Below are positions 13,947 to 64,000 of a DNA stretch of 64,000 bases, piece by piece. The DNA lies in NCBI GenBank assembly GCA_020853235.1, contig JADYZG010000028.1:1881-65880 (forward strand), written 5' to 3'. The position numbers were made by a program, and so were the translations under genes. The notes under the pieces are model-generated. The model saw only the letters and a program-made list of their open reading frames with translations. It was not told the DNA's origin and searched no databases. Within the stretch, counting starts at the first letter, position 1. Each line of letters starts with the position of its first letter. The stretch comes from a bacterium. Its GTDB lineage: Bacteria > Patescibacteriota > Dojkabacteria > GCA-002793355.

Positions 13947-14414
13947 ATGAAAGAAATCACAATTATAAAGTATTTGTTGAGTGTTCTTGCAGGGTTGTTG
14001 GTTCTGATACTAGTAATTGCGATATATTTGAAAGTTTCAAGTAAAGGAAATATCGAACCAGGCCGACAGGTAGTCACACCTACTGAAACAACAACACCTA
14101 CGGCAACGCCTACTCCGACTATGATAAATGATGCAGTCGAGTTAAGGAAAGCCGTTCTTGCGAAGAGTAACATTCCTGCAGATAAGTTTGAATTTTCTAT
14201 TAGCGTCAATCTGGGATCGTTGGCTAGAGGAACTGTTAGAAATGCCGACGATACGGGTGGGGCAGCATGGTTTGCTGGAAAACAAGGAAATATGTGGATT
14301 GTTACATTCATTGGTCAAGGAGTTCCTTACTGTGACTACATAGCAGATTTTAACTACCCAATAACCTGGTTATCACATTGTATTGAGTCTCTAGGCAAAA
14401 CAGTTGAACGATAG
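13947..14414 (+). CDS. hypothetical membrane-anchored protein with a Thr/Pro-rich linker
   Basis: 155 aa with an N-terminal TM (LLSVLAGLLVLILVIAIYL), followed by TPTETTTPTATPTPT and a small C-terminal domain. Confidence 0.55.
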   Translation: MKEITIIKYLLSVLAGLLVLILVIAIYLKVSSKGNIEPGRQVVTPTETTTPTATPTPTMINDAVELRKAVLAKSNIPADKFEFSISVNLGSLARGTVRNADDTGGAAWFAGKQGNMWIVTFIGQGVPYCDYIADFNYPITWLSHCIESLGKTVER

Positions 14415-14453
14415 GCTCGGTACCATTCACTTTTTGAGTGCCATACTTTGAGA

Positions 14454-15590
14454 ATGAAAGTTTTTCAGTCGATTGCAATCTATTTAATAACAAAACAAGT
14501 TGTCTCGAATCACTCTATGGCGAGGTGGTTTATTCCGATGGTTGACAAATTTAAACATCATGATGGCGATATACTTCGATCTGGAGATTTTCATGAATAT
14601 GTCAGAAAGATTTATGCGCAGAAGCTGTTATCTAACGAAGTCGCCAATTATTTGTTGCAAATAACTTTATGGATTGAAGATGGTTATAGACTCCTAGATG
14701 AGTTACTGCAGCAAGATTTCACTGTGCTTCTCCCGGTGAATGCGAACTACCCGACTGAGTTTCTAGAGATTTCAGATAGACCAAGTATCCTTTTTTGCTC
14801 TGGGGACCTGAGTTTATTGAACAATAAAGAAAAGATAACCCTTGTTGGCACAAGAGAACCCTCTTTGTGGGGAAAGAGCAAGGCGGGACAGTTTGCCCTT
14901 GAGGCGGCATTTTGTGGGATAACAACAGTCTCTGGTTTGGCGCAGGGTATTGACGCGATAATTTTCGAAAAGACAGTAGAGTACAGGGGACAGACAATTG
15001 CAGTCCTGCCACAATTAAACTTCTTGAATACCTCAGTTCCAGACAAGGTACTGTATTTATCTGAATATCCACCGAGTGTTAAACCTGTTTCTAAATGGCA
15101 ATTTATTGCGAGGAATAGATTGTTAGCGGCGCTTTCTCCGATAACTATTATTGTGGAAGCACCAGTAAGAAGCGGGACACTAATTACTGCGGAACTTGCT
15201 CTAGGTTACGGAAGATCAGTCTATGTGGCCCTCCCCGACCCCAACGAAGAATCAGGATACGGAGGACAAGTCTTTGGGATAACACAAACGTCTGGCTGTT
15301 TCGTACAAAGTCTTTACGATGTGTTCTATCTTGAAGGTAAATTAGACAATTTAGAAAAATATAAAAAATTCATAGAAGTGCTCTCGCAACAGAAAATTTC
15401 TATAAAAAGTAAAGATTGCCGACATCTTGCACAGGCCGATTTAAAGCGATATTTATACTCTATTTCTCATGGTGACCTGTCGCAACTTGACTCCATCATG
15501 ATAGAATTACATCGTTTTGGTATTATTAAGGAACGAAAAAACAAAGTGATATTTAATTTTTCTGGGTATAACTCATGGCCAAAAATTTAG
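14454..15590 (+). CDS. dprA: DNA-processing protein DprA
   Basis: Rossmann-like DprA core is present (LVGTREPSLWGK, SGLAQGIDAI, RNRLLAALS, APVRSGTLITAELAL). The ATG at 14454 is preferred to the TTG at 14448. Confidence 0.85.
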   Translation: MKVFQSIAIYLITKQVVSNHSMARWFIPMVDKFKHHDGDILRSGDFHEYVRKIYAQKLLSNEVANYLLQITLWIEDGYRLLDELLQQDFTVLLPVNANYPTEFLEISDRPSILFCSGDLSLLNNKEKITLVGTREPSLWGKSKAGQFALEAAFCGITTVSGLAQGIDAIIFEKTVEYRGQTIAVLPQLNFLNTSVPDKVLYLSEYPPSVKPVSKWQFIARNRLLAALSPITIIVEAPVRSGTLITAELALGYGRSVYVALPDPNEESGYGGQVFGITQTSGCFVQSLYDVFYLEGKLDNLEKYKKFIEVLSQQKISIKSKDCRHLAQADLKRYLYSISHGDLSQLDSIMIELHRFGIIKERKNKVIFNFSGYNSWPKI

Positions 15591-22078: not shown

Positions 22079-23824
22079 ATGAGGTACACGCAAATGTTAA
22101 CTAAATCTCAGAAATCCTCGAAAACGTTTGATAGCGTTAATGCAACGTTATTAATTCGTGGTGGATTTGTCGACCAGCTTATGTCTGGTGTTTATACCTT
22201 TTTACCACTGGGATGGAGAGTTCTGAAAAAAATTGAAGATATTGTTCGAGAAGAAATGGACAAAATCGGCGAAGAAGTGTTTATGCCTGCTATTGCACCA
22301 AAAGAAGTATGGGAAACAACAGGAAGATTCAGTACAGTTGACGTGTTATTTAAGGTAGTCCCAGCAAATGAAACCTCCAAAAATAAGAATGGTGCTGAGT
22401 ATGTTCTTAATTGTACACACGAAGAGCTTATAACTCCTTTAGCAAAAAAGTTTGCGACTTCGTACAAAGATTTACCAAAGGCTGTCTATCAAATTCAATC
22501 GAAGTTTCGTAACGAGGCTCGTGCAAAATCAGGTATTATGCGCGGGCGAGAGTTTCGCATGAAAGATCTTTACTCTTTTCATACGAGTGTCGATGATCTT
22601 AAGATGTATTATGAAAAAGCGAAAGCTGCTTATTTTACAACATTCAAACGTCTCGGGTTAGAGAAAGATACAGTATTAGCAGCAGCTTCTGGAGGAGACT
22701 TCACCGAAGACTTTTCGCATGAATTCCAAACAAGATGTGAAGCAGGTGAAGACACAATATTCTTTGTTCAAAGTACTAAAGAGGCGTTCAATAAAGAAAT
22801 CGCTCCATCAAGAAGTGTCTCTTTTGACCAAGATAAAGAGCAAAAAGCATTGGAAAAAGTATTTGGAGAGAATATTATCGGTGTTGCAGAACTTTGTGAA
22901 TTTATGGGTATTAGTGCAGAAAATACTACAAAAACACTTATCTTTGATACAGAAAAAGGTCCTATCATTTGTTCAGTACGAGGTGATTATGAAGTTAATG
23001 TGCTAAAGTTGAAGAAATGTGCTGGTGTCAAACAGCTAGTTCTTGCCTCAGAAGAAACAGTCAAAAAGGTAACAAGCGCCGAAGTTGGGTATGCAGGTAT
23101 CTATAATTTGCCTAGCGATATTCCAGTGTTTATTGATGACTCTATTGCCGATCTTGTTAATTTCGAAACTGGAGCAAACGAGACACATTACCATATGAAG
23201 AATATGAATTGGGGAAGAGATATTCAAAAACCAGAAAAATTCTACGACATCAAAGAAGCAAAATTAGGTGATATGTTTCCTGTCACAGGAGAAGTTTATG
23301 AAGTATTTAAGTCAGCAGAAGTTGGCAACATCTTCCCTCTCTATACGAAATTTACTGATGCAGTTGATTATAAATTTGTCGACGCAAATGGTACATTAAA
23401 GCAGGTTTATATGGGGTCTTATGGTATCGGAACCTCACGCGTTATGGGAGTACTTGTTGAGAAGTTCCATGATGAGAAAGGAATCATTTGGCCAATTCAA
23501 GTCGCACCTTACGTCGTTCATTTGGTAAGTCTCGGCGATACTGTAGAAGTAAAAGAGATGGCAAACAAACTGTACGAAGAGCTGCAGCATAAGAACATTG
23601 AAGTGCTTTGGGATGACAGGGATACAATATCTGCCGGAGAAAAATTTGCTGACGCAGACCTTATCGGATGCCCTATTCGTGCGACAATTAGTACAAGGAG
23701 CATTGAGAAAGGTGGTGTCGAATTAAAGACACGATCTGGTCAAGATGTAGAATATGTAAGTGCTGAAATAGCAATTGATACTATTCAGAAGATGATAAAC
23801 CTGTTGAGAAATGCACTGAAATAA
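22079..23824 (+). CDS. proS: proline--tRNA ligase, bacterial type with INS editing domain
   Basis: 581 aa. The N-terminus aligns with bacterial ProRS (LIRGGFVDQLMSGVYTFLPLGWRVLKKIEDIVREEM). Motif 2 is FRNEARAKSGIMRGREFRMKD and motif 3 is GSYGIGTSRV, and a middle insertion domain is present. Confidence 0.9.
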   Translation: MRYTQMLTKSQKSSKTFDSVNATLLIRGGFVDQLMSGVYTFLPLGWRVLKKIEDIVREEMDKIGEEVFMPAIAPKEVWETTGRFSTVDVLFKVVPANETSKNKNGAEYVLNCTHEELITPLAKKFATSYKDLPKAVYQIQSKFRNEARAKSGIMRGREFRMKDLYSFHTSVDDLKMYYEKAKAAYFTTFKRLGLEKDTVLAAASGGDFTEDFSHEFQTRCEAGEDTIFFVQSTKEAFNKEIAPSRSVSFDQDKEQKALEKVFGENIIGVAELCEFMGISAENTTKTLIFDTEKGPIICSVRGDYEVNVLKLKKCAGVKQLVLASEETVKKVTSAEVGYAGIYNLPSDIPVFIDDSIADLVNFETGANETHYHMKNMNWGRDIQKPEKFYDIKEAKLGDMFPVTGEVYEVFKSAEVGNIFPLYTKFTDAVDYKFVDANGTLKQVYMGSYGIGTSRVMGVLVEKFHDEKGIIWPIQVAPYVVHLVSLGDTVEVKEMANKLYEELQHKNIEVLWDDRDTISAGEKFADADLIGCPIRATISTRSIEKGGVELKTRSGQDVEYVSAEIAIDTIQKMINLLRNALK

Positions 23825-23844: not shown

Positions 23845-25269
23845 ATGGAAAAAATTCCAAATATTTACGAGGATTTTTCAGAATGGTATCAGTATGTCAC
23901 TTTAAAGGCGGAATTAGCGGATTACGGTCCAGTTAAGGGCACTATGATCCATCGACCATACGGTTTTGCTTTATGGAAACAAGTACAGAAAGTGCTTGGA
24001 AACATGATTGAAGAGGATGAAGTTGAAGATGTTTACTTTCCAATGTTTATTCCGTACTCTTTTCTTGCTGCAGAGAAGGAGCATGTTGAAGGTTTTGCAC
24101 CAGAAGTAGCAATGGTAACTCAGGCAGGAGGAGAGAAACTTGATGAGCCGCTTGTTGTTCGACCAACATCCGAAACCATTATGTATAAGACGTTTCCCAA
24201 CTGGATACATTCTTATCGTGATCTACCTTTGAAAATTAACCAATGGTGTAACATCGTTCGCTGGGAAAAGAGGACCGTAATGTACATGAGAACATCTGAA
24301 TTCTTATGGCAAGAAGGTCATACTGCTCATGCCACGAGAGAAGGAGCTGTTGAGGACGTTATGGAGTCTGCAAAACGATATAACAGATTTTTGCGAGAGT
24401 ACATGGCAGTTCCTGGGTATATGGGTTACAAAACTGAAGGTGAAAAATTTGCTGGAGCAGACTTTACTGTTACAATTGAAGCACTTGTAAGAAATAAAAA
24501 AGCACTCCAAATCGCGACCTCTCACCTACTGGGACAAAATTTTGCAAAAGCGTTTAACATTTCATTCTTAGACGAGAACAATCAAACGCAACATGTTTGG
24601 CAGACAAGTTGGGGGTTTAGTACCCGCGCTTTGGGGGGAATGCTTGGTGCTCATGGTGATGAAAAAGGTCTAGTGTTGCCACCAAGAATGGCACCAATCC
24701 AGATTATTATTGTTCCTATATTCAGGACTGAAGAAGATCGTGTTGTTGTTGCCAACTATCTTGCAGGTGTAGAAGAAATGTTTAAAAACGCTAAAATTCG
24801 ATTCAAAACAGACTGGGGAACAGGAACACCTGGTTGGAAGTTCAATCAGTGGGAGATGAAAGGTGTGCCACTGAGACTAGAAGTTGGTAAACGAGAAGCA
24901 GAAGCTAAGCAGTTAAGCTTTAGCACACGACTTGGTAAAAAGGTTGGTTATGCAATGGAATCACAGGTTTACAAAGAAATTGAATTGCTTCTTGAAGAGA
25001 TCCAAGCAGAAATTTTTAGGAATGCAGAGAATTTCTTACTTGAGAATACTGTTGATATCTCCTCAGAAAAAGAACTCGTTGAGGCAATGGAATCGGGTAA
25101 AGCAATGTATCGTGCATTCTTCAAAGATGATACGAAGCGAGCGAAAGAATTACAGGAAAAATATAAGATTACTCCGCGCGTTATTCCTTTTGACACGATT
25201 GATCAAAGAGGTCCAGATTTCATCACTGGTGAAGAGGGGGTTCCAACTATCTTTGCAAAAGCCTATTAA
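23845..25269 (+). CDS. proS: proline--tRNA ligase, archaeal/eukaryote-like type
   Basis: 474 aa. The N-terminus FSEWYQYVTLKAELADYGPVKGTMIHRPYGFALW and the RPTSET and RTSEFLWQEGHTAH motifs fit this type. The protein ends in Tyr (...FAKAY), characteristic of this ProRS class. Confidence 0.9.
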   Translation: MEKIPNIYEDFSEWYQYVTLKAELADYGPVKGTMIHRPYGFALWKQVQKVLGNMIEEDEVEDVYFPMFIPYSFLAAEKEHVEGFAPEVAMVTQAGGEKLDEPLVVRPTSETIMYKTFPNWIHSYRDLPLKINQWCNIVRWEKRTVMYMRTSEFLWQEGHTAHATREGAVEDVMESAKRYNRFLREYMAVPGYMGYKTEGEKFAGADFTVTIEALVRNKKALQIATSHLLGQNFAKAFNISFLDENNQTQHVWQTSWGFSTRALGGMLGAHGDEKGLVLPPRMAPIQIIIVPIFRTEEDRVVVANYLAGVEEMFKNAKIRFKTDWGTGTPGWKFNQWEMKGVPLRLEVGKREAEAKQLSFSTRLGKKVGYAMESQVYKEIELLLEEIQAEIFRNAENFLLENTVDISSEKELVEAMESGKAMYRAFFKDDTKRAKELQEKYKITPRVIPFDTIDQRGPDFITGEEGVPTIFAKAY

Positions 25270-51297: not shown

Positions 51298-51966
51298 ATG
51301 AAACAAATCATGCGTGTAAATAAGGCAAAAAAACTTTTTCTAGCATTGACGGTCATACTCCTTGTGAGTATCCTTTCTGTGTTTTTTCAAACAGATTTGC
51401 GTGTCGTAAGTAATCAAGTAACGACTGAAATCGGTGTAGCAAGCGAAGTCATTTCACCAGTTTTTGCAATCAAGGAGGGGTATGTCCAGTATGTCCCTGA
51501 AGAATCAGCAGATGAATTGCAATACCCACTATTGTCGGAGGTTCATGCGAGACTGCATATCCCGAGATTGGGCATAGAAGGGGCAATTGTCGAGGGTAAA
51601 GACGAGAAAATGTTAGACCAGGGATTCTGGCACTATCCCTCTGCGTCACCTTTCTCGGCAAAAGGGAATGTAGTAATTATAGGCCATAGATTTCTTAAAT
51701 TGCCACCGCATCGAGATACGTTTTACCACCTTAATTGGGTCAAATCCGGGGATGAGATTACTATTAAAACTTCTCGAGGAATGATACGATATCGGGTACG
51801 TGAGCAGCGAATTGTTTCTGTAAACGACACCTATGTGTTACAACAAACGCTTAACGCCCAAATAACGCTTATCACCTGTCATCCCTTATGGACGTCGAAA
51901 GAAAGACTCGTTATAATTGGAGATAGAATCGAGGAGAGCAATGACACAGAACAAATTAGCAACTAA
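51298..51966 (+). CDS. sortase family transpeptidase
   Basis: N-terminal TM, His in VVIIGHRF, catalytic TLITCHP, and a distal Arg (RLVIIGDR). It is divergent from the LPNSSG protein. TATAAT lies at 51274-51279 and an AAGGA SD is present. Confidence 0.85.
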   Translation: MKQIMRVNKAKKLFLALTVILLVSILSVFFQTDLRVVSNQVTTEIGVASEVISPVFAIKEGYVQYVPEESADELQYPLLSEVHARLHIPRLGIEGAIVEGKDEKMLDQGFWHYPSASPFSAKGNVVIIGHRFLKLPPHRDTFYHLNWVKSGDEITIKTSRGMIRYRVREQRIVSVNDTYVLQQTLNAQITLITCHPLWTSKERLVIIGDRIEESNDTEQISN

Positions 51967-53062: not shown

Positions 53063-54169
53063 ATGGCACAATTGTTAGAACCAGGAGCACAAAAGTTAAT
53101 TGGCTCAAAGAAAGTTATTTCACAAGAAGGCTCTGTTTATACCTACGAGATTACGATTAATGGTGCAGTACAAAAAGATTCGTACGAAAAATTGTTTGCC
53201 GCACGAAGTAAAGAAATTGAAATCAAAGGATTTCGTAAGGGTGAAGCACCACGTAATTTAGTCGAACAGCAAGTCTACTCAGATGTTGTTAAAGACCTTA
53301 CGAATTTGATGGTCAACTATTCAGTAGAAGAACTTTTAGCGGATGAGGGAATTATCGCAACAACATCACCAGAAGTTGAAAAGGTAAACTTCACTATGGT
53401 CGAGAGCCCACTTTCATTCACCATCAAAATCGACAGACTTCCAGATTACAAACTTCCAGATGTTAAAAAATTCCAAGTACCAGCACCATCAACAGAAGTT
53501 AAACCTGAAGATGTTGAAACAGCACGAAAGAATCTTTGGGAAGAATGGGTAAGCAAAGCAAAAGAGGAAGACAAAGTAAAATTCCCAGAGTTGAATGATG
53601 CATGGGTCGAAGAGCAAATGAAAATTCCAAATGTCAAAACTGTCGCAGATTTGGAGAAACTTCTTGTTGAAGAATTACAGCACGCAAAACTCCACCAAGA
53701 AGAAGACAAGTTGGTAAACGAATCCCTTGCAAAAGCAATTGCAGAGATGAATATCGAAGTCCCTGGCGCGGTTGTTGAGAGAAGCTTAAAAAGCAACATG
53801 GAGACCCAAGAAGCGCAATTTAAACAGTATGGAATTACTTTCCAAGAATATCTGAAGCACTATAATAAAACAGAGGAGGATTATAAAAAAGAAGCAACCG
53901 AAGCGGCAGAAAAACGATTCCGAGAGGATGTTTTCTGGACGCTTTTCATTAAAGATCGTGGAATCAAAATTAACCCACAAGATTCTAAGGACGTTGTCTT
54001 TGTAAATTACGCAGCGTCAGTACTTCGCGTTAAATCAGACGAAAAGCTTTCGCAAAGACAGGTTGATGTGATTCTTCAAACCGCAGCAATGTATAAGGCC
54101 GTCCAAATCTTCCGTGAGGAGATTGGTCTGACGCCACATGAAGAACCAGACATGGAAATTAAGGCATGA
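53063..54169 (+). CDS. tig: trigger factor lacking the FKBP-type PPIase domain
   Basis: Ribosome-binding signature GFRKGEAP in the N-domain and a C-terminal chaperone-arm region. At 368 aa, only about 15 aa sit where the roughly 100-aa PPIase domain normally lies. Confidence 0.82.
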   Translation: MAQLLEPGAQKLIGSKKVISQEGSVYTYEITINGAVQKDSYEKLFAARSKEIEIKGFRKGEAPRNLVEQQVYSDVVKDLTNLMVNYSVEELLADEGIIATTSPEVEKVNFTMVESPLSFTIKIDRLPDYKLPDVKKFQVPAPSTEVKPEDVETARKNLWEEWVSKAKEEDKVKFPELNDAWVEEQMKIPNVKTVADLEKLLVEELQHAKLHQEEDKLVNESLAKAIAEMNIEVPGAVVERSLKSNMETQEAQFKQYGITFQEYLKHYNKTEEDYKKEATEAAEKRFREDVFWTLFIKDRGIKINPQDSKDVVFVNYAASVLRVKSDEKLSQRQVDVILQTAAMYKAVQIFREEIGLTPHEEPDMEIKA

Positions 54170-54177
54170 TTCCTGAT

Positions 54178-54250
54178 GTCCTAGTAGCTCAATGGATAGA
54201 GCAGTCCCGTCCTAAGGGAAAGGTTGTGAGTTCGACTCTCGCCTGGGACA
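54178..54250 (+). tRNA. tRNA-Arg (anticodon CCU), CCA not encoded
   Basis: Manual fold. Acceptor GTCCTAG/CTGGGAC, D arm GCTC-AATGGATA-GAGC, anticodon loop GTCCTAA, and T arm GTGAG-TTCGACT-CTCGC. Confidence 0.9.
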
Positions 54251-54289
54251 GTTATCATCGAATTTTCACTTTTTATGTTATAATTAGCA

Positions 54290-54892
54290 ATGAAGAATTC
54301 GACTGCAAATCTATACGTTCCTACAGTATTTGAAGAGGATCGAAGGGGGAATCGTTCTTATTACGACATCTTCTCACGACTACTAAAAGATAGAATTGTC
54401 TTTATTAATGGCCCTATTAATGACCAGATGGCAAATATTATTATTGCAGAGATGGTTTTCCTTGAAAAAGAAAATTCTAAAGAAGATATTCAGGTCTATA
54501 TTCAAAGTCCAGGTGGTTCGGTCGCAGCAGGGCTCGCAATTTATGACGCAATGCAATATTTGAAACCAAACATTGTTACTATCGGAATGGGAATGATCGC
54601 CTCAATGGCATCAGTTCTTCTTTCGGCAGGTACCAAAGAAAAGCGCTTTATGCTTCCACACGCACGAATTATGATTCATCAAGTTCGATTAACAGGTTTA
54701 CCACGAATGACCGCCACAGAACTTATGATCGAAAATGAAGAAATGCAGAAAAATAAAGAAGTATTAAATCAGATTCTTGCAAAACATACTGGAAAATCAA
54801 TCAAAGATATTACGCACGATACTGAGCTAGACAAATGGATGTCAGCTGAAGAAGCAGTGAAATATGGTCTAGTTGATAAGGTTTTAGAGTAG
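54290..54892 (+). CDS. clpP: ATP-dependent Clp protease proteolytic subunit
   Basis: ClpP core including GMIASMASVLL (catalytic Ser), IMIHQ (His) and the LDKWMSAEEA region. TGtTATAAT lies 5 nt upstream of the ATG. Confidence 0.95.
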   Translation: MKNSTANLYVPTVFEEDRRGNRSYYDIFSRLLKDRIVFINGPINDQMANIIIAEMVFLEKENSKEDIQVYIQSPGGSVAAGLAIYDAMQYLKPNIVTIGMGMIASMASVLLSAGTKEKRFMLPHARIMIHQVRLTGLPRMTATELMIENEEMQKNKEVLNQILAKHTGKSIKDITHDTELDKWMSAEEAVKYGLVDKVLE

Positions 54893-54914: not shown

Positions 54915-56663
54915 ATGAGTAATACTGAACTTTCAAAACTACGATTATCTGCTGCGTATCTACTGGGAATGGCAGTTTTAGATTTGCATAAAGATGCAAA
55001 ATTAGGTACATGTGGAGTTACTGATTCTGGGTTCTACTACGATATCGAGTTCAGCGAGTCGATGAGTTCCGAGGGACTACCTGCTATCCAACAAAAGATA
55101 CAAGAATTCGTGAAATCAAATTTGAAATTTACTCTATCACAAAAAAATAAAGAAGAGGTAATTTCATATTTTACAGAAAAAGAACAACCATATAAACGAG
55201 AGGTTCTTGACGAGTCATCAGCAAAACGAGTTGGTGTCGTTTCAATCGGAGACGGTGCGTTTATGGATTTATCCGATGGTGATGTTGTTGCTGGAGCCTC
55301 GGTTTTAAAACATACAATATTGCTTGATGTTTCTGGTGCATACTGGAAAGGAGACGACAAACGAGCAATGCTTACTCGTATTTCTGGAACTTGTTTTGAA
55401 ACTGCAGAGGCACTCGATGATTTTGTCGAATTCACCGCTGAGGTGCTTCGCCGTGACCATCGAATTATGGGAAAAAAATTAGGGTATTTCTCTGTGGATC
55501 CGGGGATTGGCACAGGGTTAATTTTTTGGACACCACGAGGAAGGTTTGTTCGCGATTCACTGGCAGATTACCTTAAGGGTCATATGATACAACTAGGTGC
55601 CGAGTTGGTCGAAACGCCACTACTTGCAAGTACAGATCGAACAACGCTAATGATGCAACCCCAGTCGGAACAGTTAATTGCAAGACAGATAGGTGAGGAT
55701 TCGGAACGTTCGTATGCGGTTCGACAACAAGTTGTTGGCGCACATCTTACGATGTTTGGCTGGCAAGAGCGGAGTTATCGTGAGCTTCCTTGGAAAGTTG
55801 GCGAGATTGGAAAGTTAATACGATATGAGAAAATTAGCGAACTCGAGGGGCTACATAGGGCAAGAGAGTTTACACAGGATACCATCACAACGGTTTGTTC
55901 ACGAGAACAAATCGAGAAAGAGATTGAGTCGTTACTGTTACGGATGGTTCAGTTTTCTCGTGATTTAGGTTTTTGGGATTTTGAGATTCAATATCGTTTG
56001 CCAAAGCAAGAAACGAAAACTCAGAAAACGGATTATCAATTATTGGCGGCAGTTTTAAAGGGTATTTCTCGTAAACATTCAATTACAATTACTGAGGAAG
56101 TAACTGAAAGGAAAGTTACAGAAGCGGAAATAGTTCTTTCGGTTAAAGACTCATTGAAACAGAAAAGACGATGGTCAAAAATCCAAATTTTGTTTACATT
56201 GCCAATGGAGTATGAGGTTACTTATGTCGGTAGTGATGGTGAAAATCATGCTCCAGTTGTTATCAGATCCACAACAAGCGGTTCTTTAGAACGCGTTATT
56301 GCAACTTTGATTGAACACTACGCTGGAGTTCTACCTTTATGGCTTACCTATGAGCCTGTTCGTGTACTCCCTGTAACTAGTAAGCAGGAACTCTATGCTG
56401 AGAAAGTTGTAAAAATATTGAAAGATCGTGGTTTGCGAGCAACAATCGACATGGATCCAGAGCCACTAGAAGGCAAAATTAAGCAAGCAGAAGAAGATAA
56501 AGTTCCGTATATGATTGTTGTCGGAGAAAACGAGCAAACAACAAACACGATCTCGGTGCGAGTTCAAGGTCACGGCGTTATTGGACTTCTTGACATAGAA
56601 ACATTTATAAAGGATATTCAAGGTGAAATGCAAAGTAAATCATTTAAATCAGCTTTAGTGTAA
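54915..56663 (+). CDS. thrS: threonyl-tRNA synthetase homolog lacking the TGS domain, with substituted Zn-site and editing-site residues
   Basis: ThrRS architecture of SAD/editing-like domain, class II core and anticodon-binding domain. Flanking motifs are conserved (GFYYDIEF, RRDHRIMG, SYRELP, REFTQD, GSLERVIATLIEHYAG). It occupies the canonical position before infC-rpmI-rplT-pheST. Confidence 0.85.
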   Translation: MSNTELSKLRLSAAYLLGMAVLDLHKDAKLGTCGVTDSGFYYDIEFSESMSSEGLPAIQQKIQEFVKSNLKFTLSQKNKEEVISYFTEKEQPYKREVLDESSAKRVGVVSIGDGAFMDLSDGDVVAGASVLKHTILLDVSGAYWKGDDKRAMLTRISGTCFETAEALDDFVEFTAEVLRRDHRIMGKKLGYFSVDPGIGTGLIFWTPRGRFVRDSLADYLKGHMIQLGAELVETPLLASTDRTTLMMQPQSEQLIARQIGEDSERSYAVRQQVVGAHLTMFGWQERSYRELPWKVGEIGKLIRYEKISELEGLHRAREFTQDTITTVCSREQIEKEIESLLLRMVQFSRDLGFWDFEIQYRLPKQETKTQKTDYQLLAAVLKGISRKHSITITEEVTERKVTEAEIVLSVKDSLKQKRRWSKIQILFTLPMEYEVTYVGSDGENHAPVVIRSTTSGSLERVIATLIEHYAGVLPLWLTYEPVRVLPVTSKQELYAEKVVKILKDRGLRATIDMDPEPLEGKIKQAEEDKVPYMIVVGENEQTTNTISVRVQGHGVIGLLDIETFIKDIQGEMQSKSFKSALV

Positions 56664-57304
56664 TGGGAGATAAAAAATTTTCTTCATTTAGGTCGCGCGG
56701 AAATAGTGGTTCATATAACCGTTTTGGTGGGGGTAATAGTAATAGTGGTTATACTCGTTCAGGTGGTTACACGCCACGTCCAAGAATGCAGGTATTTGAT
56801 CCGCTTGAAAAAGAGTTTCCGAGGAACCAAGCTATTACTGTATCTGAAGTACGTGTTGTGGATGCACTCGGTGAAAACCTTGGTGTTATGTCGACAAATG
56901 ATGCAATTGCAAGAGCAGAAGCCAATGAAATGGATTTAGTTATGATTGCACCTCAAGCAAAACCACCAGTTTGCAAAATTATTACCTGGGAATCATTTAG
57001 ATATCAACACAAAAAGAAAGAAAAGGAAATCCGAAAACATCAGAAAACCGTCCAAGTTAAAGAAATCAAAATTAGTCCAAAAATTGCTGGTGGCGATCTA
57101 GACAGAAAAGTCGAGAAAATTATTGAGACAGTAACTAAAGGCGATCAAGCAAAAATTACCATCATGAGACGCTGGCCTGTAACTGAGGAAGCAGCCCGAA
57201 AATTCAAGGATGTTTTGTTGACAAAACTCGATGAATCCTGTACTATCATCAGCATTCAGGAAAAAGGTAAGAATATCTTCATCTTGGTTAAATCGAAAAA
57301 ATAA
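56663..57304 (+). CDS. infC: translation initiation factor IF-3 with a Gly/Ser/Arg/Asn-rich N-terminal extension
   Basis: IF-3 N-domain (ITVSEVRVVDALGENLGVMSTNDAIARAEANEMDLVMIAPQAKPPVCKI) and a C-domain. The ATG overlaps the thrS stop (TAATG). An internal ATG (MQVFDP...) is an alternative start. Confidence 0.9.
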   Translation: MGDKKFSSFRSRGNSGSYNRFGGGNSNSGYTRSGGYTPRPRMQVFDPLEKEFPRNQAITVSEVRVVDALGENLGVMSTNDAIARAEANEMDLVMIAPQAKPPVCKIITWESFRYQHKKKEKEIRKHQKTVQVKEIKISPKIAGGDLDRKVEKIIETVTKGDQAKITIMRRWPVTEEAARKFKDVLLTKLDESCTIISIQEKGKNIFILVKSKK

Positions 57305-57311: not shown

Positions 57312-57503
57312 ATGCCAAAGCTCAAAACAAATAAAACATTAATGTCCCGAGTCAAAGTGACTCCAAATGGCAAATTGGTTAGGAAGCGAGCTTTTTCGGC
57401 ACACTTGCGTAGCAAGAAGACTTCGGCTGCACGTGCGAGGACAGGTGCAAAAAAAGTTGACTCGATTCGTAAGCATCCATGGGTTAAGTTACTACAAGGG
57501 TAA
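57312..57503 (+). CDS. rpmI: 50S ribosomal protein L35
   Basis: MPKLKTNK... in a 63-aa basic protein, in infC-rpmI-rplT order. Confidence 0.93.
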   Translation: MPKLKTNKTLMSRVKVTPNGKLVRKRAFSAHLRSKKTSAARARTGAKKVDSIRKHPWVKLLQG

Positions 57504-57505: not shown

Positions 57506-57844
57506 ATGAGAGTAAAAAGTGGTATTGTCACGGCACGTAGACATAGAAAAATATTAGATAGAGCAAAAGGATACAGATTGTCACACAGCTCCAATGTCCG
57601 TAAGGCGATTGAAACTCTTTTGCATGCAAAACAATATTCTTACGTTGACCGTAAAAAAAGAGCTGGCCAATTTAAAAAACTTTGGATTCAGCGTATCGGC
57701 ATTGCTTTAGAGAGCCTCGGAATTAGTTACTCAAAGTTTATGGCGAACCTAAAAACCGCGAAGGTTGCACTTAACAGAAAAATGTTAGCAGAATTAGCTG
57801 TTAAGCAACCAGAGATCTTTGCAAAGATCGCGAAATTAGGTTAG
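57506..57844 (+). CDS. rplT: 50S ribosomal protein L20
   Basis: MRVKSGIVTARRHRKIL...GY...YVDRKKR pattern in a 112-aa protein. Confidence 0.95.
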   Translation: MRVKSGIVTARRHRKILDRAKGYRLSHSSNVRKAIETLLHAKQYSYVDRKKRAGQFKKLWIQRIGIALESLGISYSKFMANLKTAKVALNRKMLAELAVKQPEIFAKIAKLG

Positions 57845-57854: not shown

Positions 57855-58919
57855 ATGACCATAAAAACAATCGATCGTTCGCTTGCTGCTATTACAAAGC
57901 AAGTTGCAACAAAACTTTCTCAGGTAAAAACTCTCGAAGATATATACGCTGTTCGTTCTGAGTTTACTGGTAAAACTAGTGTACTTACCCAATTATTGCA
58001 ATCATTAAAAGACGTTCCCACAGAAGATAGACCGACAATTGGAGCAAAAGTTAATCAGGCGAAAAAGGAAATAGAATCAATTATTGAGCGAGCCTTGTCG
58101 CTTATGATGAATAGAGAATCACTTCTAAAAGACGAAGTTCGTGACATTGACGTATCTGCACCATTTCACACAAACAATTCAAAAATTCCTGATTTTACAG
58201 GTATTGGTAGTATGCACCCGTTACAGTATGAGATTAACCGCATGCTAGATATCTTCACAACGATGGGGTTTACACCTTTTGAGGGGAGAGAATTGGAAAC
58301 AGATTATTACGTTTTCGACTCATTAAATATGCCAAAAGAGCATCCAGCTCGACAAAACTGGGATACATTTCGTACTGAAGACAATCTTATTCCTACACCA
58401 CATACCTCAAATATGCAGGTTCGTGTTATGCGACACTTAAAAGCTGCACCATTACGAGCGGTCATTTATGGACGTTGTTCTAGGAATGAAGCCGTTGATG
58501 CTGTCCATGGTCACACGTTCTATCAAATTGAAGGGTTATATATTGACAAGGGAGTAAGTATAAGTAACATGATTGGGACAATTAGTGCATTTGTAAATGC
58601 TTTTTTTGATAAAAATGTAACAAGTAAAATTCAACCAGGATATTTTCCATTCGTAGAGCCAGGAATTGAATATTTAGGGCAATGCCCGTTTTGTGATGGT
58701 AAAGGATGTAGTTCTTGTAAACATACGGGTTGGTTAGAATTGGTTGGTGCAGGCATGATTCATCCAAATGTACTGAGAGAGGGTGGATTTGATCCAGCTG
58801 TGTATAGTGGGTTCGCATGGGGGCTAGGACTTGATCGTATGGTTATGCAGCGAAATGGAATCCAAGATATACGATCCTTGTTCGCAAGTGACATAAGATT
58901 TCTTCAATCATCACTATGA
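57855..58919 (+). CDS. pheS: phenylalanine--tRNA ligase alpha subunit
   Basis: Motifs PTPHTSNMQVR, FYQIEG and GAGMIHPNVL, plus the CPFCDGKGCSSCKHTGWLE insert seen in some bacterial PheS proteins. Confidence 0.95.
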   Translation: MTIKTIDRSLAAITKQVATKLSQVKTLEDIYAVRSEFTGKTSVLTQLLQSLKDVPTEDRPTIGAKVNQAKKEIESIIERALSLMMNRESLLKDEVRDIDVSAPFHTNNSKIPDFTGIGSMHPLQYEINRMLDIFTTMGFTPFEGRELETDYYVFDSLNMPKEHPARQNWDTFRTEDNLIPTPHTSNMQVRVMRHLKAAPLRAVIYGRCSRNEAVDAVHGHTFYQIEGLYIDKGVSISNMIGTISAFVNAFFDKNVTSKIQPGYFPFVEPGIEYLGQCPFCDGKGCSSCKHTGWLELVGAGMIHPNVLREGGFDPAVYSGFAWGLGLDRMVMQRNGIQDIRSLFASDIRFLQSSL

Positions 58920-61492
58920 AATACTCGTTAAATCAAGTCAAGAAGTATGTTCCTGAGATTTCATCAATTCCCGTCGAGGAGTTAATCGCAAGAATTTGGG
59001 CTTCCATTGCAGAAGTTGAAAACGTCGAATATCTGTCCAAGAAATACGAAGGAGTGATAGTTGCTCGTGTCGAAAAAATAGAAAAGCATCCAAGATCTGA
59101 AAAATTAGTTGTTGCAACTGTAGATATTGGCAAAAAAACTCCGGTCACTGTCGTTACTGCAGCACATAATTTAGATGCTGGAGATTTTGTACCTTACATT
59201 CCGGTTGGTGGTCGTGTACTTGATGTTCATGCTAACACTAGTAAACAGATTGAAATCACCGTACGTGTGATGGCTGGCATCGATTCTATCGGAATGCTTG
59301 CGAGTGAAAAGGAGCTAGAACTCAGTGAGGACCACGAAGGCATTATGATTCTAAGACAAAACGAATTAAAGCATGAACTTGTTGCGGGTGAACCTATAGT
59401 AGACGCACTTGATTTAGACGACGTTATTTTCGAAATTGAGAATAAGTCACTAACACACAGAGGAGATTGTTTGTCTATAGCCGGAATTTCGAGAGAAATC
59501 GCCACACTATATAGTTTCGACTTAGTCCTTCCAGTGTGGCAGACTCCATCTGTAAATATCGCCGATATGGTTGGAGATGCTTTCCAAAAAGAACCTTCGG
59601 CCATTGTTACTGTTGAGGTGGCGGCTAAACCGGCTGTCGAGCGATATTCTACTATTGTACTGGATAATGTCCAAGTAACACCCTCGCCTCTGTGGCTACG
59701 AATATACCTTGGAAAGCACGGATTCAATTCAGTAAACAATATAGTTGATATTACCAACTATGTCATGATTGAGTACGGACAACCGATGCACGCGTTTGAT
59801 GCCTCGACAGTAATTCACAAAACGAGAAATGAAAAAATTACTTATCCACTTATTGTTCGCTATGCGCAGGCAGGAGAAACGATACTAACCTTAGATGGTA
59901 AAGAAAAAAAATTACCACAAATGGCAACCGTGATTGCAGACGAGAAAAAAGCATTAGCAATTGCAGGGATTATTGGTGGGCAAGAATCAGCCATCTCAGA
60001 AACTTCGACAAGAATTATACTCGAATCAGCCGTGTTCAATAAATATGCCATTAGGAATACAAGTATGAGTATTGGAACTACAACTGATGCATCCGTAATT
60101 TTTTCAAGAAAACAAGATCCAGAGAAAACAGTTAGAGCATTACTTCGCGCGGTACACTTATTAACAGAACTAGCTGGTGCGAAAGTAGTGTCAGACATTA
60201 CCGACATTTATTCCAAAACAAAAATAACGAATACACTCATCGTATCTCATGAGAAGGTTGAAGCATTTTTAGGGATTGCAGTATCTCCGACAAAAATTGT
60301 GCAAATTTTAGAAGGATTAGGGTGTCAGGTCGTTAAGAAAAACAATCTTTATAGGATGGAAACTCCAACATGGAGACCAGATATCGCAATCGATGAAGAT
60401 GTTTATGAAGAAATCGCACGAATGGTAGGATATGGAAATATAATCCCTGAATTGCCCAAACGAGGAATTTTCGGAGTTAGTCTTTCGCCATACGAAAAAG
60501 GTAAGCAAGCAACCCTAAGAGCGTTTACTGCACTTGGTATAAACCAAGGTATGAACTTTAGTTTTGTCAGCAAACAATTATACGAAAGGTGCTTATTGTC
60601 TATGAATGATGCCCGATCGGTTATCAATGCAATTTCCCCGGATGTGCAATACATGCGCAAACATTTAATTCCAGGTTTATTAGAGCAGTTTTCTAAGAAT
60701 CAGTATAATAGCGAGAAATTCGGTCTTTTTGAGCTTGGAAAGGTTTCGAGAAAAGGATTACATTACACGGGTATTTCTGTCGAAGATCTGCATATGCCAG
60801 AGTCGAGGTTCGGAATTGATGATCTTGGTCTACCAATTGAAGATGAACATGTTGCAATCGGAATTATTGATGACAGTCAGCAACCCGGATATTTTACCTT
60901 AAAGGAGGTCATTACGAGGTATGCTGAGTCAATGCACATATTACTTGAATTTATTCATCCAGACGAACTTACTGCAAAAGAAGTGAAGCAGTTACCTACT
61001 TGGGCGACAGAACTATTTCCTCTTTATAAAAAGGGGAGAATGGCAGTTGTTAGGAATGCTGGGACAAAAGATTTCTATGGTGTTATTGGCGAACCTGGAA
61101 CACTGGTCTTGAAAGAATTTGGTTTTACAAAGCAGGTTGCAATAGCCGAATTATCTCTATACAAGATTATTAGTACTGCTTCTTTTGAACCATTGTATAA
61201 AGAGCCGCCAAAGTTTCCTATTGTCACGGAAGATCTCTGTTTTGAAGTACCATTAGACGTGCAATATGCTGCAATTTTGAAGGTATTGACCGAAGTTTCT
61301 GATAATTTCGTTCAAGATGTTGTCATACGAATTTATCCGATAGACATATACCAGAAGAAAGAAGACAAGAAACAAGTGACAAATCGTGTGGTTTTTGCAC
61401 CTATAAAAGCATCATTATCTGATAGTCAGATTAAGAAATACCGAGAGCAATTTATTACAGGTATGCTTACCCTAAAAGGGAAATTAGTATAA
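58916..61492 (+). CDS. pheT: phenylalanine--tRNA ligase beta subunit
   Basis: 858 aa with an N-terminal tRNA-binding (EMAP-like) domain (KIEKHPRSEKLVVATVDIG). B3/4, B5 and FDX-ACB-like regions appear in order. It overlaps the pheS stop. Confidence 0.93.
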   Translation: MKYSLNQVKKYVPEISSIPVEELIARIWASIAEVENVEYLSKKYEGVIVARVEKIEKHPRSEKLVVATVDIGKKTPVTVVTAAHNLDAGDFVPYIPVGGRVLDVHANTSKQIEITVRVMAGIDSIGMLASEKELELSEDHEGIMILRQNELKHELVAGEPIVDALDLDDVIFEIENKSLTHRGDCLSIAGISREIATLYSFDLVLPVWQTPSVNIADMVGDAFQKEPSAIVTVEVAAKPAVERYSTIVLDNVQVTPSPLWLRIYLGKHGFNSVNNIVDITNYVMIEYGQPMHAFDASTVIHKTRNEKITYPLIVRYAQAGETILTLDGKEKKLPQMATVIADEKKALAIAGIIGGQESAISETSTRIILESAVFNKYAIRNTSMSIGTTTDASVIFSRKQDPEKTVRALLRAVHLLTELAGAKVVSDITDIYSKTKITNTLIVSHEKVEAFLGIAVSPTKIVQILEGLGCQVVKKNNLYRMETPTWRPDIAIDEDVYEEIARMVGYGNIIPELPKRGIFGVSLSPYEKGKQATLRAFTALGINQGMNFSFVSKQLYERCLLSMNDARSVINAISPDVQYMRKHLIPGLLEQFSKNQYNSEKFGLFELGKVSRKGLHYTGISVEDLHMPESRFGIDDLGLPIEDEHVAIGIIDDSQQPGYFTLKEVITRYAESMHILLEFIHPDELTAKEVKQLPTWATELFPLYKKGRMAVVRNAGTKDFYGVIGEPGTLVLKEFGFTKQVAIAELSLYKIISTASFEPLYKEPPKFPIVTEDLCFEVPLDVQYAAILKVLTEVSDNFVQDVVIRIYPIDIYQKKEDKKQVTNRVVFAPIKASLSDSQIKKYREQFITGMLTLKGKLV

Positions 61493-61509: not shown

Positions 61510-64000
61510 TTACGGCGTTGCTGTTGGAGTTGGTGTGGCTGTTGGAGTTGGTGATGGCAGTGTTACTACGATATTTCTAATGGCAGTAGCAGTTTTTGCT
61601 AAAGAATCTGTAGCTTTAGAAGTAATCAGAAGTGGCCCGGCAACGGCACTATTGGGAACTTTACAACCGATACAATTCCATTGCCCAGCGAGAAAGAGCG
61701 CACCATACGTGTTTCCGTCGATAGTAAACTCGACGCTGGAGATTCCATTACCAGAACTTGCAGTCACACTAGCAGAGATAAGGTCACCCGGTCCATAACT
61801 AGCGTTTTCAGCGGGGGTAATATATGAAATTGTTACATCAGGGATACATGGCTCTTCGGTAGGTTTATCTTCCCAAAGTTTGTATTTAAGTTTTTCTGTG
61901 ACATATTTCTCGTAGGCAGCTTGCTGGGCACTATTTGGTAGTTTGAAGTCTAGATATAGGGTATCTTTAATTAATCCTGCTGCACGAGCTTCGGTCTCGT
62001 TGCTAGCGATCTTCCCATTTTTTGTACAGATAGGCAGCTTTTTGTGTGCTGTGTCTGGTGCTGGCCCTTTTCCTTTAATGATAGGAGTGGTGAATTTGGA
62101 ACACTCGACACCGTTTGTTGCCGCAAGTCCAGTGTCTCGACAGACTGTCGTAAATGAAACTCCTGCAGGTTGTGTATAAAATTCTTTTCCATATTTTGGA
62201 ATTAGTCGCTTCATAATATTATTTGCAACTATGATAGGAACATTTTCAGACCACCCTGAAGTTCTGTCTCCGTTGTTATTTCCGTTCCATACACCGACAG
62301 TTAATCGAGGATAGTAGAGAAGCGTTACCAAGTCTTTCTGATCATTCGTGGTCCCAGTTTTACCACAGAGTTGCTGCCCGGAAGCCGTATAATACTGAGG
62401 TACGTGCTTGTCTTTATCTCCTCCAATCATGCACAACATCCAATTTAAAAGATAGACTTCTTCTTCTGAGAATACTCGCTTTGCAGTTTTCTCAGTCTGC
62501 GATTTAAAGACCTCTGTTCCTTTCGAATCAGTTACTCGAATGATTGTAGAGATGTCATGGCGAACCCCTTTGTTCGCAAATACTGCAAACGCGTTGGTAT
62601 GTTCAATTAATTTCATGTCTCCAGCACCGAGGGTTAGTGAGAGTCCATAGCGATCTCGCTGTGTTAGTGTTGTAATACCAAGTGCTTTTGCTGTATCAAG
62701 GAATACATCGGTTCCTCCAATCATTTGCAAGGTATACACTGCAGGTAAGTTCCTTGATTGGTTGAGTGCTCGACGCATGGTCAGCAATCCGTCGTATTTG
62801 AAATTCCAATTTTCTGGTTTATATGCTCCAAAAGTCATCTTAATATCCGGTGCAAGAGTTCCTGGATTGTACCCTTTATGAATTGCCGCCAAGTAGGTAT
62901 AAGGTTTGACAGAAGAACCCATTTGTCTCGGCATCACTGCAACATTAACTTTTCCATCAACGCGCTTATCTTTATTATTGTTATAGTCAACCGACCCAAC
63001 CATTGCTAGGATTTCACCGTTTTTTGGATTATTAATAACAACGGACCCATTGTAAACTTTATAAGCATTTTTGACATTATTAATGTGTTTCTTTAATTCT
63101 TCTTCTGCAATTTTTTGTGTATCCAAATCAAGAGTTGTATAAACTCGAAGACCACCTGCTCGTACTGCATCAGCACCGAACTGTGCTTCGAGTTGTTGAA
63201 TTACGTAGAAAACAAAATGAGGAGCAGTAATATTTACCTTTCCTGGAGTAATTGCTATCTCCTCGGCTTTGGCTGCAGTAATTTCTTCTTCTGTTACACC
63301 CGTTCTGTCTTTATATTTAAGCATAAGATCAAGTACGATATCTCGGTACTTTTTTACATTTTCAAAGTCTCCGTTATAGAGTGCATTGCTGTAAGCACCA
63401 GGAGCTCTGACGACTACAGAAAGTAATGCACTTTCTGCCAGTGTCATTTTGTCAATATCCTTATTAAAATATGCACGTGATGCAGTTTGAAATCCATATA
63501 CTGCGCCACCAAGGGGAACTTCATTCATGTAGAGTTCCAAAATTTGATCTTTGCTTAGCTTACTTTCTAATTGGAACGCCACCAAAATTTCTTTTAGTTT
63601 TCGACTAACATCTCGAGTATATGCATCATCGCCAAGTACTTTATAAAGAACAGTATTACGTGCTAGTTGTTGCGTAATTGTACTTGCACCGCGAGAACTT
63701 CTAGCACCTGTACGAATATAGTCAAATCCGGCGGAGAATAAACCGACCACGTCAATACCTTTATGTTCGTAAAATTCAATATCTTCCGCTGCGAGAAGTG
63801 CCCATCGTGTTTTTTCGGGAATCTTATCTAGTGCAACGAACTCTCGGTTAATATCCCCATATACCGTGTAAAGCAATTTTCCATTCCGATCAAAAATTTT
63901 GGTGCTTTGCTCCAGATCTTGTGTTGCGAGTTTTCCAGCATCTGGAAGTGAGGCATTGATTGTTCCGATGTACCCAGTTACAAGTATTGCGCTAATAATG
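61510..64000 (-). CDS. class A penicillin-binding protein (glycosyltransferase + transpeptidase), with the N-terminus beyond the window edge
   Basis: GT51 motifs (EDIEFYEHKGID, GASTITQQLARN), transpeptidase SSVKP, and KTGTT. A C-terminal Ig-like domain and a TPTPTATPTPTATP tail follow. The reading frame stays open upstream of the ORF-track Met at 63876 to position 64000. Confidence 0.9.
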   Translation of the reverse strand, partial: IISAILVTGYIGTINASLPDAGKLATQDLEQSTKIFDRNGKLLYTVYGDINREFVALDKIPEKTRWALLAAEDIEFYEHKGIDVVGLFSAGFDYIRTGARSSRGASTITQQLARNTVLYKVLGDDAYTRDVSRKLKEILVAFQLESKLSKDQILELYMNEVPLGGAVYGFQTASRAYFNKDIDKMTLAESALLSVVVRAPGAYSNALYNGDFENVKKYRDIVLDLMLKYKDRTGVTEEEITAAKAEEIAITPGKVNITAPHFVFYVIQQLEAQFGADAVRAGGLRVYTTLDLDTQKIAEEELKKHINNVKNAYKVYNGSVVINNPKNGEILAMVGSVDYNNNKDKRVDGKVNVAVMPRQMGSSVKPYTYLAAIHKGYNPGTLAPDIKMTFGAYKPENWNFKYDGLLTMRRALNQSRNLPAVYTLQMIGGTDVFLDTAKALGITTLTQRDRYGLSLTLGAGDMKLIEHTNAFAVFANKGVRHDISTIIRVTDSKGTEVFKSQTEKTAKRVFSEEEVYLLNWMLCMIGGDKDKHVPQYYTASGQQLCGKTGTTNDQKDLVTLLYYPRLTVGVWNGNNNGDRTSGWSENVPIIVANNIMKRLIPKYGKEFYTQPAGVSFTTVCRDTGLAATNGVECSKFTTPIIKGKGPAPDTAHKKLPICTKNGKIASNETEARAAGLIKDTLYLDFKLPNSAQQAAYEKYVTEKLKYKLWEDKPTEEPCIPDVTISYITPAENASYGPGDLISASVTASSGNGISSVEFTIDGNTYGALFLAGQWNCIGCKVPNSAVAGPLLITSKATDSLAKTATAIRNIVVTLPSPTPTATPTPTATP
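61519..61554. repeat. 2 x 18-nt tandem repeat encoding the (TPTPTA)n tail of the PBP
   Basis: GCTGTTGGAGTTGGTGTG / GCTGTTGGAGTTGGTGAT read directly from the sequence. This is a coding low-complexity linker. Confidence 0.8.

Follow-up and report, generated by a model that had tools for sequence, protein, structure and literature searches.

Threonyl-tRNA synthetase (ThrRS) provides a textbook example of metal-mediated discrimination between amino acids, in which zinc rejects isosteric valine and an editing domain removes serine. The gene considered here, designated thrS*, encodes a full-length member of the ThrRS family that does not have the catalytic zinc ligands. It lies in a window of 64,000 nucleotides (the whole stretch of DNA that was analysed; contig JADYZG010000028.1 of assembly GCA_020853235.1) from a subclade of Candidatus Dojkabacteria, within the candidate phyla radiation (CPR, or Patescibacteria). 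The gene order in the window is tig-tRNAArg-clpP-thrS-infC-rpmI-rplT-pheS-pheT, with thrS* directly upstream of infC-rpmI-rplT. An initial annotation of this DNA had placed the gene in the canonical thrS-infC-rpmI-rplT-pheST slot, and this order is confirmed both in the window and in the loci of its close relatives. The gene, its domains and its diagnostic sites are listed below, with canonical residues in E. coli numbering.

54915..56663, forward strand: thrS* gene, 582 amino acids, the same protein as NCBI MCC7304378.1; full-length ThrRS-family protein without catalytic zinc ligands
54915..55409, forward strand: N2 (editing-type) domain, residues ~1–165
55452..56324, forward strand: class II catalytic domain with a rebuilt amino-acid pocket, residues ~180–470
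55722..55736, forward strand: R270-Q271-Q272-V273-V274 in place of K330-P331-M332-N333-C334, first zinc ligand gone (from alignments and codons)
55821..55829, forward strand: motif 2, R303-Y304-E305 (R363/E365), kept and invariant
55875..55889, forward strand: Q321-D322-T323-I324-T325 in place of Q381-D382-D383-A384-H385, contact to the threonine hydroxyl and second zinc ligand gone
56118..56129, forward strand: T402-E403-A404-E405 in place of Y462-G463-P464-K465, with E403 and E405 invariant in the clade
56178..56186, forward strand: K422-I423-Q424 in place of T482-V483-Q484, with K422 a new invariant and Q424 kept
56265..56267, forward strand: R451 in place of H511 (third zinc ligand), an invariant Arg in the clade
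56280..56294, forward strand: motif 3, G456-S457-L-E-R460 (G516/S517/R520), kept
56337..56660, forward strand: HGTP-type anticodon-binding domain, residues ~475–582

A ThrRS-family protein without the zinc site

The open reading frame (54915–56663, forward strand) is uninterrupted, with zero internal stops, and its product has the ThrRS architecture of N2 region, class II core and HGTP anticodon-binding domain. Comparison with S. aureus ThrRS (1nyq) by phmmer gives E = 1.6e-80, the N2 region aligns to 1tje (E = 2.2e-17), and the Pfam models PF00587 (tRNA-synt_2b) and PF03129 (HGTP_anticodon) are matched; PF07973 (tRNA_SAD) was undetected in the same Pfam search. Identity to any canonical ThrRS is 27–35%, and canonical ThrRS across phyla share 45–60%. 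The score against TIGR00418, the thrS equivalog model, is 404.5 bits for a curated cutoff of 383.65, a narrow pass, and it is because the protein barely exceeds this cutoff that MCC7304378.1 carries the label 'threonine--tRNA ligase [bacterium]'. Annotation pipelines name the protein in this way, and surveys of aminoacyl-tRNA synthetase (aaRS) complements and of genome completeness would miss the problem.

Canonical residues were mapped onto the window protein by pairwise alignment with phmmer against S. aureus 1nyq, E. coli 1qf6 and S. maltophilia 6vu9, by MAFFT alignments of 33, 50 and 71 sequences, and by a profile–profile comparison (hhalign, probability 100%) of the profile of its closest relatives with a canonical profile. 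All seven alignments agree that C334 has become V274, D383 T323, H385 T325 and H511 R451, and the codons behind the mapped residues were checked directly in the DNA. The window protein thus has V274, T325 and R451 in the columns of the zinc triad Cys334/His385/His511. The threonine contacts of the structural literature, D383, Y462 and K465, are likewise replaced, by T323, T402 and E405. The initial annotation had assigned these columns by hand and concluded that all Zn ligands, among which it counted D383, were gone; the profile alignment reproduces its assignments and the conclusion stands.

A survey of orthologs in the protein database found the same zinc-ligand loss, in the same gene order, in approximately 16 clusters at 52–100% identity (52–73% for those of independent assemblies) from NCBI, ENA, JGI and Logan assemblies. 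These are referred to here as the clade, and conservation within it was counted over 14 aligned members. Position 511 is always R, position 385 is T (V in one member) and position 334 is V, I or L. In the segment that replaces K330–C334, the R and the first Q are invariant, the next position is near-invariantly Q/E, and the last is always aliphatic. The residues listed initially are correct, but the remodelling is far wider than that list. A set of 17 canonical ThrRS shares 163 invariant columns, of which the clade keeps 83 and has changed some 60. KPMNCP (330–335) has been rewritten as RQQV[VIL]x and YGPK (462–465) as xExE, with R476Q, W478R, T482K and G378E as further substitutions. The SGH loop, which carries H309, is unrecognisable, and the alignments disagree on the counterparts of H309 and Y313.

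The residues of the ATP site have been retained. R363, E365, R375, Q381, Q484, G516 and R520 are invariant in 14 of 14 clade members; at S517, 13 members have S and one has T. Adding 16 canonical homologs and E. coli (the 33-sequence alignment) leaves the ATP-site residues invariant except G516/S517, and in the 71-sequence alignment all seven of the former set are invariant. The class II signature, namely the motif 2 Arg and Glu (R303, E305), R315 and the motif 3 Arg (R460), is invariant across the 71 sequences, as had been proposed for motifs 2 and 3 from the window alone. In the anticodon-binding domain, E540 (E600) and R549 (R609), the anticodon contacts of the 1QF6 complex, do not vary in either the clade or the canonical set. 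This domain had been described as intact, which agrees both with these residues and with the normal rate at which it evolves.

The editing columns have fared differently within the clade. In the window protein, the seven alignments give L11 for H73, Y15 for H77, S120 for C182 and V124 for H186, leaving nothing of the HxxxH...CxxxH motif, although the N2 domain keeps K94 (K156) and D118 (D180). The replacement of the editing residues is therefore correctly described for the window, but complete loss is not a property of the clade: it is confined to the window and a few relatives. The deeper-branching members P0004 and P0011–P0015 keep H73, H77 and C182, together with K156 and D180, and H186 is the sole motif residue lost in every member. 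The absence of the N-terminal TGS domain, also remarked upon at first, is real but ordinary, as many canonical bacterial ThrRS of 570–600 amino acids are also without it. At the N-terminus of one clade member (P0010; L007 135–1814, CAZCKT010000050.1), the first ~20 ThrRS residues are swapped for an unrelated peptide of ~38 residues. The contig is 6.7 kb long and carries the label Saccharibacteria, and the swap probably results from an error of assembly or gene calling.

Structure prediction bears on the possibility that the unusual residues reflect an artefact, a pseudogene or a misalignment. AlphaFold2 supplied with 14 clade sequences returned a predicted local distance difference test score (pLDDT) of 26–47 over residues 231–320, as might be expected if that possibility were true. 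With 71 sequences, pLDDT rose to 89 and the predicted template modelling (TM) score to 0.85, low confidence being limited to the rewritten 241–270 segment and the motif 2 loop. This model superposes on S. aureus ThrRS with a TM score of 0.90 and on E. coli ThrRS with 0.86 (0.86–0.91 over canonical ThrRS structures), from which the ThrRS scaffold is predicted to be intact. Structures of yeast mitochondrial MST1 were also among the fold matches. An artefact has almost no probability and is excluded by the intact reading frame, the same substitutions in some 16 clusters from four sources of assemblies, the seven concordant alignments, the deep-alignment model and a mean column identity of 72% in the clade.

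Distribution, origin and constraint

Members of the clade come from Candidatus Dojkabacteria/WS6 or Patescibacteria with genomes of ~0.7–1 Mb, including a complete genome (CP129470.1, 888,748 bp) and a 1.05-Mb scaffold (BOKM01000001.1). Beyond the clade, identity falls sharply to ~35%, where ordinary ThrRS are found, and a profile search of 1.84 billion cluster representatives recovered only the clade representative, one fragment and an intermediate, P0121. The order tig-tRNAArg-clpP-thrS-infC-rpmI-rplT-pheS-pheT-PBP-recG-spoU (PBP, penicillin-binding protein) is shared by the window, by clade loci L002, L003, L006, L008 and L009, and by the loci of P0121 (L028/L029). Judged by this order, the window gene is the positional ortholog of thrS and not a stray paralog.

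P0121 (589 amino acids; L028/L029 10001–11770) represents the sister lineage. Its upstream order also matches (sortase, AP-endonuclease-2 family, tig, tRNA-Arg, clpP), and it shares derived anticodon-domain features with the clade, namely EPxEGKIKQAEEDK, VGEKEQ and a C-terminal KSIKS. Its synthetic site is canonical, with KPMNCP, QDDCH, YGPK and IHR, and nothing is left of its editing motif (A, F, G, G). Since the gene in the corresponding slot of P0121 encodes a canonical zinc site, the window gene is the ortholog of a working thrS whose zinc site was lost in place on the clade stem. The editing motif decayed independently in P0121 and in the window sub-branch, because the deeper clade members keep H73, H77 and C182, and so within the window sub-branch this decay came after the zinc loss. 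P0121 is itself only ~36% identical to other canonical ThrRS and is a fast-evolving, editing-deficient enzyme of the Mycoplasma type.

In mainstream Dojkabacteria/WS6, the infC slot is occupied by a canonical ThrRS that is highly conserved, with more than 120 clusters sharing at least 75% identity. Degenerate ThrRS homologs are found in other Dojkabacteria: P0133, P0136, P0137 (L032), P0155 (L036), P0124 and P0148. These retain the editing motif H/H/C/H, and their synthetic site is eroded in differing ways; class II invariants are lost too (R363Q, R375N/S, R520S) and pocket positions change erratically. An intact editing site with a degenerate synthetic site is the combination found in archaeal editing-only ThrRS-ed. 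All six homologs show it, the window protein does not, and they look like bacterial counterparts of ThrRS-ed; no published description of them was found in the literature searched. A neighbour-joining tree of the 50-sequence alignment groups the clade with these homologs, which is probably long-branch attraction. The homologs are closest to mainstream Dojkabacteria ThrRS and share its MQSKIR motif (pattern MxxKIR), not the clade's EGKIK. A common origin was rejected and the events are taken to be independent, because the anticodon-binding domains of the degenerate homologs keep the mainstream MxxKIR while the clade and P0121 have derived motifs of their own.

Conservation of the pocket differs from that of an eroding site. 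Of 13 positions that line the amino-acid and A76 pocket in ThrRS structures, 10 differ from the canonical residue, and 8 are invariant in the clade, compared with 23% of catalytic-domain columns (binomial P = 0.003). Those fixed to new residues are G463E, K465E, T482K and H511R, with H309Q as a fifth for which the alignment is uncertain. M332Q and H385T are nearly fixed, the remaining variation is conservative (V/I/L at position 334, T/S/N/A at position 383), and the rewritten segments QPQxEQ and RQQ are invariant. Many other columns of the clade alignment are invariant as well. This pattern is the signature of a rebuilt site under purifying selection, not of a drifting one. The pair K465E/T482K might be a compensating swap, although this is a guess.

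Operon context and neighbouring genes

The genes around thrS* in the window are as follows.

53063–54169, forward strand: tig
54177–54251, forward strand: tRNA-Arg(CCU)
54290–54892, forward strand: clpP, ending 22 nucleotides before thrS*
56663..57304, forward strand: infC, encoding initiation factor 3 (IF3), its ATG overlapping the thrS* stop (TAATG)
57312..57503, forward strand: rpmI (L35)
57506..57844, forward strand: rplT (L20)
57855–58919, forward strand: pheS
58916–61492, forward strand: pheT

The tRNA-Arg(CCU) gene between tig and clpP is kept throughout the clade and the sister lineage (L002, L003, L006, L008, L009, L028) and serves as a synteny marker. If translation does begin at the ATG at 56663, IF3 has an N-terminal extension of ~45 residues rich in Gly/Ser/Arg/Asn (GNSGSYNRFGGGNSNSGYTRSGGY), and a long form of IF3 (213–221 amino acids) is likewise called in the clade loci. 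In L032, the locus of one of the degenerate homologs, the PheRS alpha subunit (12970–14739, 589 amino acids) has an extra N-terminal region that matches an AlaRS-type class II core (PF01411) besides the PheS domains.

A regulatory role for the protein within its own operon had been suggested at the outset; a mechanism like that of E. coli finds no support. Both an E. coli-type translational operator and a T-box were considered and rejected: an Rfam scan of the window yields three tRNAs and no leader element, the gap between clpP and thrS* is 22 nucleotides, and infC overlaps the gene. Hairpins resembling an anticodon arm occur at chance level (8 per 64 kb on this strand), and the single one in the 54–58 kb operon region falls inside coding sequence.

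Elsewhere in the window are two back-to-back prolyl-tRNA synthetase (ProRS) genes of different evolutionary types (22079–23824 and 23845–25269, both on the forward strand). One ProRS is bacterial-type with an insertion domain (461 bits to TIGR00409, 375 bits to E. faecalis 2j3l) and the other is of the archaeal/Thermus type (516 bits to TIGR00408, 462 bits to T. thermophilus 1h4q). The catalytic features of both look canonical, in a genome of roughly 1 Mb. The idea that an adjacent ProRS stands in for ThrRS was rejected, as both are ordinary ProRS by their TIGR00409/TIGR00408 scores and by their motifs relative to 1h4q and 2j3l. General zinc economy was also rejected as an explanation on one test, TopA of the same genome, which keeps two C4 zinc ribbons.

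Downstream of pheT, a class A penicillin-binding protein (61510–63876, reverse strand) ends in a C-terminal Pro/Thr/Ala repeat (PSPTPTATPTPTATP). A sortase (51298–51966) and Ig-like surface proteins are encoded near its gene, and together these suggest a Gram-positive-like envelope. An open reading frame of 1126 amino acids (1008–4388, forward strand) has no NCBIfam match at E <= 1e-5.

Competing readings and comparison with known systems

The favoured reading, a tentative one that falls somewhat short of an even chance, is that thrS* encodes a still-active, metal-free enzyme, most likely one that activates threonine. The gene would be the vertically inherited thrS ortholog of a Dojkabacteria subclade, on whose stem the zinc-based threonine site was replaced by a metal-free polar pocket. 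In this pocket, 511 would be Arg, 463 and 465 Glu, 482 Lys, 383 and 385 Thr or some other small polar residue, 331 and 332 Gln, and 334 aliphatic, with the class II ATP/adenylate residues and the tRNA(Thr) anticodon-binding domain kept. The protein would still bind ATP and tRNA(Thr) and activate a small hydroxy amino acid, most likely threonine, and by analogy the side chains of Glu and Thr, together with the Arg that replaces a zinc ligand, may take over the roles of zinc. Proofreading would be weakened or lost, as H186 is missing clade-wide and the window protein retains no part of the motif. What speaks for activity is the ATP site, the conserved new pocket, the unchanged anticodon-binding domain and long survival in a streamlined genome; the full-length, three-domain protein persists across a clade that has diverged to 52% identity in genomes of ~0.7–1 Mb. 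That the protein is a zinc-independent ThrRS with this Arg/Glu/Lys/Thr/Gln pocket and no proofreading, and the only ThrRS of the subclade, is less likely than not.

A number of observations weigh against activity, beginning with the extent of the damage: the three zinc ligands, D383, Y462 and K465 are all replaced and the SGH loop is rewritten. Nine former invariants have become variable (W304, S307, G308, P335, Y462, D467, Q479, D486 and F493), with seven residues found at Y462 across the clade and four at Q479, a pattern suggestive of relaxed constraint. Rates of evolution point the same way. Identity was expressed relative to PheS/PheT of the same genome pairs in place of the ratio of nonsynonymous to synonymous substitution, because the closest pair for which DNA was available is 66% identical and synonymous sites are saturated. 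Canonical ThrRS is 10–16 percentage points more identical than PheS (77 vs 67; 59 vs 43), whereas the clade protein is 14–18 points less so (66 vs 80; 55 vs 73). The order of the domains is inverted as well. In canonical pairs, catalytic, N2 and anticodon-binding identities are 83/73/69 and 71/51/43, with the catalytic domain best conserved and the anticodon-binding domain least. In clade pairs, the anticodon-binding, catalytic and N2 domains give 82/73/66 and 65/54/54, the first now being the best conserved part of the protein. Relative to PheS, the rate exceeds that of canonical ThrRS ~3-fold in the catalytic domain and ~2.4-fold in N2, and is unchanged in the anticodon-binding domain. By these comparisons, constraint has moved from the catalytic to the anticodon-binding domain, and the acceleration of the catalytic domain has persisted long after the remodelling event.

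The phylum also offers a precedent for a degenerate copy in the slot with a working copy elsewhere. In locus L030 (GCA_014729085.1, WJKM01000013.1), a canonical ThrRS (P0270) lies 2.7 kb upstream of the degenerate P0133, which directly precedes infC:

7279–9117 and 10001–11755 of WJKM01000013.1: ThrRS tandem of L030

The canonical thrS of a relative of L030 is not next to infC but adjoins a cas12a-cas4-cas1-cas2 locus (region 7047–16166 of L037, and L038, JGI Ga0212092_1001018). A second thrS could similarly be present in the clade. In favour of the active reading, none was seen in the 64-kb window or in the 10 kb to either side of the gene in six clade loci. A tblastn search of the 64-kb window and the 20-kb loci with E. 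coli ThrRS and P0017 returned only the known gene and a weak ProRS cross-match. With the canonical Dojkabacteria ThrRS P0270 and P0377 as queries, none of the 240 canonical CPR ThrRS matches listed, the best 120 of thousands for each query, was traceable to a clade genome, which is weak evidence.

The faster rates, the freed invariants and the precedent in the phylum speak for a non-catalytic pseudo-synthetase, an explanation somewhat less likely than the favoured one. Once duplication or transfer had supplied a second, canonical thrS, the slot copy would have lost aminoacylation and editing, and the protein would be retained for its anticodon-binding domain and dimeric scaffold; it might bind or sequester tRNA(Thr), pair with an active ThrRS as a heterodimer, or simply keep the coupled translation of infC going. 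Both known catalytic centres in the window protein are without their defining residues, and heterodimers of duplicated ThrRS subunits are documented (PMC4787780). A dead site would be expected to drift, as in P0133, P0136, P0137 and P0148, but here the ATP-site residues are all kept and the new pocket significantly exceeds other parts of the catalytic domain in conservation. The degenerate copies elsewhere are independent events and provide an analogy only. Moreover, the sister P0121 indicates that the slot copy worked as a synthetase shortly before the loss, a dead 1.7-kb gene is unlikely to remain at full length for this long in a streamlined genome, and the second thrS that is needed was not found in a far from exhaustive search (the window, six loci and the 240 matches listed).

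The same conserved pocket could instead belong to a neofunctionalised adenylate-forming enzyme, which would dock on tRNA(Thr) or a similar anticodon loop and act on a new substrate outside decoding while another ThrRS serves translation. The retained ATP-site and anticodon-contact residues would fit this reading, as would the fixation of R451, E403, E405, K422, Q271 and Q272 and the invariance of QPQxEQ and RQQ, and new substrates are a familiar feature of aaRS paralogs (reviewed in PMC9437257). It is nevertheless improbable. The gene is orthologous to thrS and occupies a housekeeping slot, the neighbourhood gives no hint of a new pathway, an undetected second thrS is again required, and mischarged tRNA(Thr) would be toxic unless the product were channelled away from the ribosome. 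The initial annotation had offered two alternatives, a ThrRS that recognises threonine in a new way and a pseudo-synthetase still able to bind RNA; its premise holds, and both are compatible with the computed data.

If thrS* does encode a zinc-independent sole ThrRS, this would overturn the view of active-site zinc as universal and required for threonine selection, and would imply that Ser/Val-for-Thr mistranslation is tolerated in these symbionts. A conserved ThrRS ortholog without zinc or editing may represent a second, metal-free mode of threonine recognition, recent enough that the intermediate P0121 survives. Alternatively, the clade would show clearly, in nature, how a housekeeping synthetase becomes a pseudo-enzyme inside a core translation operon. 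Either outcome is relevant to how translational fidelity is kept up or relaxed in minimal-genome CPR bacteria.

Canonical bacterial ThrRS (E. coli ThrS, 1QF6/1EVL; S. aureus, 1NYQ) share with the window protein the family, architecture, operon slot, motif 2 and 3 arginines, E600/R609 and fold. The window protein differs in having no zinc triad, D383, Y462 or K465, in its rewritten KPMNCP and SGH segments and in its degenerate editing motif. Editing-deficient ThrRS, such as those of Mycoplasma, whose editing sites are mutated, and yeast MST1, which is without an editing domain, have in common with it the loss or decay of proofreading in a reduced genome. P0121 looks exactly like this type, with its synthetic site intact and its editing motif reduced to A/F/G/G. 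The editing-deficient enzymes, of which those of Mycoplasma are mentioned in PMC4787780, keep the catalytic zinc site, whereas the window clade has lost it too.

In the literature, zinc is described as universal in ThrRS active sites, and every characterised ThrRS uses it (PMC4787780). The editing motif has been called invariant across life, and mistranslation of Thr codons is said to be well tolerated (PMC12003907). A review of aaRS duplication lists no zinc-less ThrRS (PMC9437257), and searches of the literature on ThrRS combined with CPR/Patescibacteria/Dojkabacteria, zinc independence and pseudo-paralogs found no description of one. Zinc-sparing, Zur-regulated ThrRS paralogs, including Anabaena T2, keep the zinc ligands (PMC2770081), and the window protein, without them, is not of that kind. 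Among duplicated ThrRS (crenarchaeal ThrRS-cat/ThrRS-ed and Anabaena T1/T2, the latter described as heterodimers in PMC4787780), a non-functional synthetic site persists beside an active copy. The degenerate Dojkabacteria copies, such as P0133 beside P0270, fit this divided labour, with H/H/C/H intact. The window protein has also lost the editing motif and cannot be a simple editing-only subunit.

A precedent for the proposed switch is found in seryl-tRNA synthetase (SerRS). The bacterial-type enzyme binds serine through Glu/Thr hydrogen bonds, with no metal, and Glu and Thr residues of this kind are what the clade pocket has gained. Methanogen-type SerRS selects serine via an active-site zinc, according to a reference cited in PMC11580382. 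SerRS is a different family in which the two modes are anciently separate, whereas the switch in thrS* would be recent and would have taken place within one orthologous lineage.

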